Shown piece after piece: positions 34,211 to 35,324 of a stretch of 64,000 nt of DNA. Source of the DNA: Escherichia coli (GTDB taxonomy: Bacteria > Pseudomonadota > Gammaproteobacteria > Enterobacterales > Enterobacteriaceae). A program made the position numbers and the translations under genes. Position 1 is the stretch's first letter. Every line of letters starts with the position of its first letter. Under the pieces are notes generated by a model that made no database searches, was not told the DNA's origin, and saw nothing but the letters and a program-made list of their open reading frames with translations. Location of the stretch: the NCBI RefSeq assembly GCF_003334815.1, contig NZ_QOWO01000003.1, one strand, 5' to 3'.

Positions 34211-34777
34211 ATGGCAACGTACTATAGCAACGATTTTCGTGCTGGTCTTAAAATCATGTTAGACGGCGAACCTTACGCGGTTGAAGCGAGTGAATTCGTA
34301 AAACCGGGTAAAGGCCAGGCATTTGCTCGCGTTAAACTGCGTCGTCTGCTGACCGGTACTCGCGTAGAAAAAACCTTCAAATCTACTGATTCCGCTGAAG
34401 GCGCTGATGTTGTCGATATGAACCTGACTTACCTGTACAACGACGGTGAGTTCTGGCACTTCATGAACAACGAAACTTTCGAGCAGCTGTCTGCTGATGC
34501 AAAAGCAATTGGTGACAACGCTAAATGGCTGCTGGATCAGGCAGAGTGTATCGTAACTCTGTGGAATGGTCAGCCGATCTCCGTTACTCCGCCGAACTTC
34601 GTTGAACTGGAAATCGTTGATACCGATCCGGGCCTGAAAGGTGATACCGCAGGTACTGGTGGCAAACCGGCTACCCTGTCTACTGGCGCTGTGGTTAAAG
34701 TTCCGCTGTTTGTACAAATCGGCGAAGTCATCAAAGTGGATACCCGCTCTGGTGAATACGTCTCTCGCGTGAAGTAA
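34211..34777 (+). CDS. efp: translation elongation factor P
   Basis: 188 aa [38 protein letters not shown] with the modified Lys in the KPGKG loop. Confidence 0.96.
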
Positions 34778-34828
34778 TGCGGTTGTGGTGCGGCCTGCAG
34801 GCTGCACCATCACTTATTCAGGTCAGAG

Positions 34829-34954
34829 ATGATGAAACGCCTTATCGTTCTTGTTTTGCTTGCCAGCACGCTGCTCACGGGCTGTAACACCGCTCGCGGT
34901 TTCGGCGAAGACATCAAACATCTCGGCAACTCCATCTCTCGCGCTGCCAGCTAA
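34829..34954 (+). CDS. ecnA: entericidin A lipoprotein (antidote)
   Basis: Manually translated 41 aa [45 protein letters not shown] lipobox; absent from ORF track. Confidence 0.88.
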
Positions 34955-35064
34955 TTTTTCTTCTCTTCCGAAAAATCATCAGATTCCCATCATTTTTGGC
35001 GATGTTGTCTATTATTAATTTGCTATAGGCAAACATAAATAACATTACCTAAAAGGAAGACGTT

Positions 35065-35211
35065 ATGGTGAAGAAGACAATTGCAGCGATCTTTTCTGTT
35101 CTGGTGCTTTCAACAGTATTAACTGCCTGCAACACCACGCGTGGCGTTGGTGAAGACATTTCTGATGGCGGTAACGCGATTTCTGGCGCAGCAACGAAAG
35201 CGCAGCAATAA
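35065..35211 (+). CDS. ecnB: entericidin B lipoprotein (bacteriolytic toxin)
   Basis: Manually translated 48 aa [48 protein letters not shown], paralogue of ecnA; absent from ORF track. Confidence 0.88.
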
Positions 35212-35218
35212 GCAATAA

Positions 35219-35252
35219 CGGTACGACAGCTGTGTCGTGCCGTTTGTTTTTT
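35219..35252 (+). terminator. intrinsic terminator after ecnB
   Basis: cggtacgacagctgtgtcgtgccg hairpin followed by tttgtttttt. Confidence 0.75.
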
Positions 35253-35324
35253 CTGCGATAGTCACAAAGGTAATAGTTGAAATTCCCCTGCCACCTGGCA
35301 AAATATCCGTTCAACCATCAGCTT

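Follow-up and report, generated by a model that had tools for sequence, protein, structure and literature searches.

Within the analyzed window, a contiguous stretch of 64,000 nucleotides of Escherichia coli DNA, two short genes encoding the mini-lipoproteins entericidin A (ecnA) and entericidin B (ecnB) are arranged in tandem. The gene efp (34211..34777) is located upstream of ecnA and sugE, also designated gdx (35387..35704), downstream of ecnB, which is the placement given in the original prediction. Both open reading frames, of 41 and 48 codons as predicted, were found in the six-frame ORF list at 34829..34954 (+) and 35065..35211 (+). Their products of 41 and 48 amino acids are shorter than the 60-amino-acid default of the ORF lister, and this is consistent with the statement that they had been missed by the ORF track. 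More generally, a size cut-off in ORF listing conceals genuine genes of 40–50 codons. The features assigned to the locus are listed below, together with the evidence used.

34781..34814, + strand: GC-rich hairpin past the efp stop codon, candidate efp-distal terminator or attenuator (fold, stem conservation)
34829..34954, + strand: ecnA coding sequence, 41 codons plus stop, ATG start (RefSeq, NF007319, PF08085, lipobox rule)
34829..34882, + strand: predicted EcnA signal peptide, residues 1–18 (lipobox rule)
34883..34885, + strand: codon of Cys19 in the EcnA lipobox L-T-G-C (lipobox rule)
35009..35015, + strand: C-TATTAT, putative -10 element of sigma-S (sigma-38) type for ecnB transcription (sequence and conservation)
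35021..35029, + strand: -10-like motif TGCTATAGG, probable sigma-38-dependent pause-inducing element of ecnB (coordinates inferred)
35053..35059, + strand: ecnB Shine-Dalgarno sequence AAGGAAG, 5 nt ahead of the ATG (direct reading)
35065..35211, + strand: ecnB coding sequence, 48 codons plus stop, ATG start (RefSeq, NF007487, PF08085, mass spectrometry)
35065..35127, + strand: predicted EcnB signal peptide, residues 1–21 (lipobox rule)
35128..35130, + strand: codon of Cys22 in the EcnB lipobox L-T-A-C (lipobox rule)
35066..35096, + strand: predicted MicA pairing site, ecnB start codon and the next 10 codons (RNAduplex)
35217..35254, + strand: ecnB intrinsic terminator, 12-bp stem and 4-nt loop (35217..35244) followed by TGTTTTTTCT (terminator scan, fold)

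In order to evaluate the identity of the encoded peptides, which the original prediction had named as entericidins, both were searched against curated protein family models. EcnA reached 114.9 bits on the NCBIfam equivalog NF007319 (residues 1–41 versus model positions 1–41 of 41; curated cut-off 86 bits) and EcnB 121.9 bits on NF007487 (residues 1–48 versus model positions 1–48 of 48; curated cut-off 94 bits), while the cross-matches remained below cut-off (44.5 bits for EcnA on the EcnB model and 46.5 bits for EcnB on the EcnA model). Furthermore, positions 1–20 of the 20-position Pfam model PF08085 were matched by residues 24–43 of EcnB (E = 5.9e-7) and residues 21–40 of EcnA (E = 7.6e-6). 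Since the equivalog scores exceed their cut-offs and PF08085 is matched over its whole length, membership in the entericidin family is established. The predicted paralogy of the two peptides was also borne out: two-sequence BLASTP yielded 24 identical residues out of 44 (E = 4e-14), and the core CNT(A/T)RG(F/V)GEDI is common to both.

Genome comparison showed that the region 34700..35400 (701 bp) is 100% identical at the DNA level to E. coli K-12 MG1655 and to many other strains. In MG1655, RefSeq coding sequences annotated as ‘lipoprotein antitoxin entericidin A’ (ecnA) and ‘lipoprotein toxin entericidin B’ (ecnB) occupy the identical positions. They represent the K-12 genes b4410 and b4411 described by Bishop et al. 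1998 (J Mol Biol 280:583), and the proteins deduced here are identical to WP_000977757.1 and WP_000239596.1. K-12 also features the same gene order, epmB-efp-ecnA-ecnB-sugE-blc-ampC-frdDCB. Compared to MG1655, no difference was found inside the locus, whereas the window carries two tRNA-Gly(GCC) genes and MG1655 three. Both genes are already known and annotated, and nothing is new in their identity; the contribution of this analysis is to place the published regulation on coordinates and to document the functional label as a weak spot. The reading of the region as the chromosomal entericidin locus of E. coli, composed of the tandem paralogues ecnA and ecnB with the processing and the control of ecnB proposed below, is assigned a probability of approximately 0.88.

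Orthologous loci of Salmonella and Klebsiella, showing the order efp-ecnA-ecnB-(regulator)-sugE, were compared with the E. coli locus. In both genera the tandem pair also follows efp; in Salmonella a gene for a LuxR-type regulator is located between ecnB and sugE, which E. coli lacks. Between E. coli and Salmonella, 22 synonymous and 2 nonsynonymous codon changes were counted for ecnB, 13 and 8 for ecnA, and 62 and 2 for efp, respectively. Substitutions among the three genera fall mostly on third codon positions. Mature EcnB is nearly invariant in E. coli, Salmonella and Klebsiella; in EcnA the lipobox and the CNTARG(F/V)GEDI core are kept and the rest drifts. Within E. coli, ecnB is at least 99% identical in 5330 genomes, and ecnA is at least 99% identical in 3632 genomes and 90–95% identical in 675. 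In one ecnA allele of 93.7% identity, seven of the eight changed codons are synonymous. These codon changes indicate strong purifying selection on ecnB and a more relaxed one on ecnA. Both are real protein-coding genes, and constraint is stronger on the supposed toxin than on its partner.

The shortness of the two frames, and the occurrence of equally long ORFs on the opposite strand such as 34810..34935 (−) with 41 amino acids, might suggest open frames arisen by chance. This explanation has a negligible probability and was rejected in view of the equivalog-level family matches, the dominance of third-position substitutions in three genera, the conserved lipobox and core motif, the strong Shine-Dalgarno sequence and the terminator, and the direct detection of EcnB by mass spectrometry (PMC12529367). 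The antisense ORFs 34810..34935 (−) and 35049..35159 (−) are likewise unsupported as genes; the codon-position pattern of the sense strand accounts for their conservation.

The 701-bp region was matched in all 5426 complete E. coli genomes screened and was covered to at least 80% in 5420 of them. Insertions were encountered in individual strains: in the blood isolate 21AR0303, IS1 has disrupted the 3' end of ecnA but left ecnB and the ecnB promoter intact, and in strain Z142-1 an IS5-like element lies within ecnB. In 21AR0303, a single genome, the EcnA C-terminus GNSISRAAS is replaced by VMLPTY (ending KHLVMLPTY) and the conserved core is retained. Matches to EcnB were obtained in 17 of 72,556 plasmid records, mostly replicons of 0.4–5 Mb or evident chromosomal fragments. 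Two public records labeled as plasmids are in reality chromosomal DNA of E. coli type or Salmonella type. No defence-system match was obtained for the locus with PADLOC.

Regarding the predicted lipoprotein nature of both peptides, the lipoboxes LTGC (Cys19) and LTAC (Cys22) were found as claimed, and EcnA as well as EcnB conform to a PROSITE-style lipoprotein rule (K/R within the first seven residues, then a hydrophobic stretch free of charged residues, and finally the lipobox [LVI][ASTVI][GAS]C). Among 217 small ORFs of the whole window (30–70 amino acids, counted from the first Met), five pass this rule; ecnA and ecnB are two of these five and the only ones with a clean n- and h-region. Moreover, Pfam LPAM_1 matched EcnA weakly. 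In other PF08085 members, namely those of Salmonella, Klebsiella, Agrobacterium (Atu8019) and Xanthomonas citri (ecnAB), the lipobox is likewise followed by the core C-N-T-x-x-G-x-G-E-D-I.

Based on this anatomy, each pre-lipoprotein would be exported by Sec and receive its lipid at the lipobox cysteine, and signal peptidase II would remove the signal peptide. Cleavage would leave amphipathic lipopeptides of 23 residues for EcnA (predicted net charge +1) and 27 residues for EcnB (predicted net charge −1). Of 2000 shuffles, none equalled the helical hydrophobic moment of EcnA (0.587) and 0.2% that of EcnB (0.413), and since shuffles seldom match these values, an amphipathic helix is plausible for both peptides. 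A search for a solved structure of either peptide returned none. Asp at position +2 of a lipoprotein is a Lol-avoidance signal. Because EcnA and EcnB possess Asn instead of Asp at +2, both are predicted to reach the outer membrane via the Lol pathway. The cysteine of EcnB is listed as lipid-modified in UniProt P0ADB7 on the basis of curation, and the intact protein escapes top-down mass spectrometry, presumably owing to the lipid (PMC12529367).

Regarding expression of ecnA, the hairpin past efp folds at -22.6 kcal/mol (z = -2.3), and ecnA begins 15 nt downstream of it. Both arms of the hairpin have changed in Salmonella and Klebsiella, yet the stem is retained (GGTGCGGC/GCTGCACC, GGTGCAGC/GCTGCGCC and GGCGTAGC/GCTGCGCC); no T-run follows it in the window DNA. 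A consensus scan returned no sigma-70-like promoter between 34600 and 34829, and the ribosome-binding site of ecnA consists of a weak AGG only, 6 nt upstream of the ATG. Expression of ecnA would probably be low and might depend on read-through from efp.

The spacer between ecnA and ecnB comprises 110 nt. The sigma-70 consensus scan predicted no promoter for ecnA or ecnB, which has no bearing on the presence of a sigma-S promoter. In vitro, Petushkov et al. observed that RNA polymerase containing sigma-38 uses the ecnB promoter and that the sigma-70 enzyme barely does so (PMC5389655). The same study described a sigma-38-dependent pause at +17/+18 on ecnB, induced by a -10-like motif located 10–12 nt upstream, and an OmpR site overlapping the ecnB promoter and pause site (PMC5389655). 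On the DNA analyzed here, the -10 region GATGTTGTCTATTATTAA of the spacer is shared unchanged with Salmonella, the Klebsiella counterpart being TTTGTCTATGCTTA; the sigma-S-type element itself, C-TATTAT in E. coli, appears as CTATGCTTA in Klebsiella. The -10 element was assigned to 35009..35015 by inference from the sequence, and the start of ecnB transcription is predicted near 35021-35023. Furthermore, TGCTATAGG at 35021..35029 fits the published pause consensus TGcTATA(A/C)T (PMC5389655) and probably represents the pause-inducing element within the initially transcribed region.

The AAGGA of the ecnB Shine-Dalgarno sequence is kept in Salmonella and Klebsiella. Downstream of the gene, the clean terminator noted in the original prediction was recovered with a fold of -24.6 kcal/mol (z = -4.74), and none of 200 shuffles was as stable. 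A guanidine-II riboswitch is located ahead of sugE; a scan match at 35323-35342, ‘terminator-like’ in appearance, corresponds to hairpin P1 of this riboswitch. Folding of the spacer revealed no terminator between ecnA and ecnB, so some co-transcription by read-through is possible.

At the post-transcriptional level, the small RNA MicA lowers ecnB mRNA in E. coli, as reported by Andrade et al. (PMC3551931). The MicA sequence, checked as RF00078 (83.9 bits), was hybridized in silico with the locus. Nucleotides 1–28 of MicA and positions 35066..35096 form an RNAduplex structure of -24.2 kcal/mol, the best site within 34780..35250, and this energy ranks in the top 1.2% when compared with 2028 background windows. 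MicA is accordingly modelled as pairing over the ecnB start codon, which is a prediction from duplex energies. According to the proposed model, ecnB would form its own transcription unit with a sigma-S-dependent, OmpR-repressed promoter, a strong Shine-Dalgarno sequence and a strong terminator, and the sigma-E-dependent MicA would repress it by pairing across the start codon. As sigma-S, OmpR and, via MicA, sigma-E act on the gene, ecnB would answer to stationary phase, osmolarity and envelope stress. In line with this, ecnB was described as a sigma-S marker that is specifically induced under inhibition of LolCDE, i.e., when lipoprotein trafficking is blocked, and this induction occurs without ecnA (PMC5105897). 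That the locus encodes two exported paralogous mini-lipoproteins, of which ecnB is controlled by sigma-S, OmpR and MicA, is concluded with high confidence.

In proteome data, few small proteins are detected by mass spectrometry as consistently as EcnB. Healthy cells grown in minimal medium contain about 70,000 copies of it each, and an increase exceeding 100-fold was seen when clpP was mutated; EcnA is absent from the proteins reported in that study (PMC12529367).

The functional label of the pair originates from Bishop et al. 1998. According to later papers recounting that work, overproduced EcnB was bacteriolytic and co-expressed EcnA attenuated lysis (PMC7296081, 10.1101/505081), which was interpreted as programmed death of stationary-phase cells brought about by a chromosomal toxin/antidote module (PMC7296081, PMC5105897, 10.1101/505081). 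The antidote/bacteriolytic-toxin pair cited as established knowledge in the original prediction is an accurate account of the literature (Bishop et al. 1998, as cited in PMC7296081, PMC5105897 and PMC5389655). Nevertheless, the toxin/antitoxin model is thinly supported: it rests on that one overexpression study and is questioned by later papers as well as by the population data presented here.

Compared to classical toxin-antitoxin modules such as mazEF and hok/sok, and to type I membrane-toxin peptides, the entericidin locus shares a small, membrane-active peptide, lysis on overproduction, a neighbouring gene with a reported counteracting effect, and down-regulation through a small RNA. However, EcnA and EcnB are both exported lipoproteins and paralogues of each other, unlike the partners of such modules. 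MicA, moreover, is a trans-acting small RNA of the sigma-E regulon with many targets and not a cognate antisense antitoxin (PMC3551931). Toxin-antitoxin genes are expected to be co-transcribed; here the promoters of ecnA and ecnB appear to be separate, ecnB having its own sigma-38 promoter within the spacer (PMC5389655), and the pair is not known to form an autoregulated bicistronic operon, even if some read-through across the terminator-free spacer is possible. Whereas such modules are patchily distributed and mobile, ecnAB is core and chromosomal, residing at one chromosomal place in 5426 of 5426 genomes. The ‘toxin’ EcnB is abundant in healthy cells (PMC12529367), and loss of the ‘antitoxin’ appears to be tolerated, both in the viable ecnA deletion mutant of the Keio collection (PMC7296081) and in the IS1-carrying isolate with its truncated ecnA beside an intact ecnB. 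The weight of the latter case is limited because it concerns one genome and the truncated EcnA keeps its conserved core. Taken together, these observations against an addiction module are indications and not a refutation. In Burkholderia, where a single locus of 2.5 kb was examined by motif search, one EcnB-like gene without a tandem partner within 1.2 kb was found, as opposed to the tandem pair of E. coli.

An alternative explanation regards EcnB as an abundant outer-membrane, surface or vesicle lipoprotein of structural or adhesive function under sigma-S and envelope-stress control. The lysis of 1998 would then reflect an overload of the lipoprotein pathway or the membrane, EcnA would be a low-expressed, faster-evolving paralogue without antidote function, and the toxin/antitoxin label would be wrong. 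This alternative is considered to have somewhat less than an even chance. It is favored by the high copy number of EcnB, reached without harm and without any EcnA reported (PMC12529367), by the viability of the Keio ecnA mutant (PMC7296081) and by the natural IS1 truncation, although the latter again counts as one genome with a retained EcnA core. The induction of ecnB alone under LolCDE inhibition (PMC5105897), its own promoter lacking the autoregulation of a toxin-antitoxin operon (PMC5389655) and the core, chromosomal distribution (all 5426 genomes versus 17 of 72,556 plasmid records) point in the same direction, as does the far stronger constraint on ecnB than on ecnA, which is the opposite of a tightly co-evolving pair. 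Furthermore, the Agrobacterium homologue Atu8019 is surface-exposed, enriched in outer-membrane vesicles (OMVs), where it acts in OMV docking, and neither lytic nor pore-forming, in contrast to the lysis reported for EcnB; EcnB homologues are also present in OMVs of several genera (PMC7296081). On the other hand, ecnB on its own reportedly caused more lysis in the work of Bishop et al. than both genes combined (as summarised in PMC7296081 and 10.1101/505081), and an EcnB homologue that Enterobacter C6-6 secretes is reported to lyse Flavobacterium (Schubiger 2015, cited in PMC7296081). A Xanthomonas ecnA mutant was, moreover, stress-sensitive (10.1101/505081).

The Enterobacter data, according to which entericidin was reportedly needed for the antagonism of strain C6-6 towards Flavobacterium psychrophilum (Schubiger 2015, as cited in PMC7296081), lead to another conceivable role, in which EcnB would chiefly act as an outward weapon, i.e., a released lipopeptide or OMV cargo lysing competitors, with EcnA conferring immunity on the producer in a bacteriocin-like manner. 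The occurrence of homologues in OMVs (PMC7296081) and the amphipathic character of the mature peptides would fit such a role. It is nevertheless judged improbable: the neighbours are efp and sugE, and no bacteriocin-type export, processing or immunity genes were found nearby; neither PADLOC nor any other defence-system match was obtained. The peptide carries a lipid anchor and has a negative or neutral charge, and proteoliposomes containing Atu8019 left membranes undisrupted (PMC7296081). In addition, the locus is universal and near-invariant within the species and therefore would provide no discrimination among E. coli strains.

Regarding the entericidin locus as such, the two descriptions of EcnB, namely a dose-dependent lytic lipopeptide moderated by EcnA versus an abundant envelope or vesicle lipoprotein whose lysis results from overexpression, stand at roughly even odds. 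Should the latter apply, it would offer a new view of a known gene pair and not a new element. EcnB belongs to the most abundant and most frequently detected small proteins of E. coli, yet its label as a programmed cell death toxin goes back to one overexpression study. At stake is whether the pair represents a rare lipoprotein-based toxin/antidote system or a mis-annotation that has spread to thousands of genomes.

Most of the spacer between ecnB and sugE/gdx is explained by a guanidine-II riboswitch, which is already known for E. coli sugE. This element contains two hairpins with the loops ACGA and ACGG, and its end is followed 17 nt downstream by the sugE/gdx ATG at position 35387. A consensus scan had reported the first of these hairpins as 'terminator-like'; this call was rejected as a mis-report, as the hairpin belongs to the riboswitch. 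The features of this region are as follows:

35323..35369, + strand, guanidine-II riboswitch (mini-ykkC, RF01068), scoring 50.4 bits (gathering score 32)
35237..35704, + strand, mechanical ORF of sugE/gdx, GTG start at 35237, 155 aa
35387..35704, + strand, sugE/gdx coding sequence according to the RefSeq annotation, 105 aa
35701..36234, - strand, blc, convergent with sugE/gdx

If the GTG at 35237 were taken as the start codon, the riboswitch would fall inside the sugE/gdx ORF. At its 3' end, sugE/gdx overlaps the convergent blc gene by 4 nt.

Upstream of ecnA, the hairpin located distal to efp lies 15 nt from the ecnA start (34781..34829, + strand), and the ecnA ribosome-binding site is weak. 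A T-run following this hairpin is absent in E. coli, whereas Salmonella features the T-rich tract CCTATTTTT at this position. The region upstream of ecnA was searched for a promoter-like site and none was found. ecnA may be transcribed by read-through from efp or from a promoter located within efp.

In Salmonella, the spacer between ecnB and sugE harbors a gene encoding a LuxR C-terminal-type regulator, convergent with ecnB, which is missing in E. coli and Klebsiella:

L004 (locus of Salmonella sp. pPJT1-452kb, NZ_OM317741.1) 1378..1965, - strand, LuxR C-terminal-type regulator gene

The replicon pPJT1-452kb is a 452-kb IncHI2A conjugative plasmid that bears the entire chromosomal-type block epmB-efp-ecnA-ecnB-regulator-sugE. 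A further record designated as a plasmid, 'plasmid unnamed16' of K. oxytoca FDAARGOS_1334 (NZ_CP069925.1), is linear and comprises 5317 bp. Its deduced EcnA, EcnB, SugE, Blc, AmpC (BlaEC), FrdD and FrdC proteins are identical to those of E. coli K-12, and this 'Klebsiella plasmid' is probably an E. coli chromosomal fragment that is contaminating or mis-binned in the public record.

Regarding tRNA genes, the following were observed in the window:

21063..21138, - strand, tRNA-Phe(GAA)
50872..50947 and 50984..51059, + strand, two tandem tRNA-Gly(GCC) genes

MG1655 carries three tRNA-Gly(GCC) genes at the syntenic position, flanked by orn and queG, whereas only two are present in the window. The window therefore stems either from a strain that is not MG1655 or from a variant with a different copy number of the glyVXY array.

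Natural insertions were identified in both entericidin genes. In E. coli 21AR0303 (NZ_CM132268.1), the 3' end of ecnA carries IS1 while ecnB is intact; ampC of this strain also has an internal stop. In E. coli Z142-1 (NZ_CP159700.1), an IS5-like ISEc35 element resides within ecnB, directly past the signal peptide, and ecnA is intact. Across the species, ecnA (34829..34954) varies far more than ecnB (35065..35211), located only 110 nt away: among 5426 E. coli genomes, 675 fall into the 90–95% nucleotide identity band for ecnA and none for ecnB. In the one divergent ecnA allele examined, seven of the eight changed codons are synonymous. The contrast between the two genes could reflect a recombination boundary or unequal constraint.
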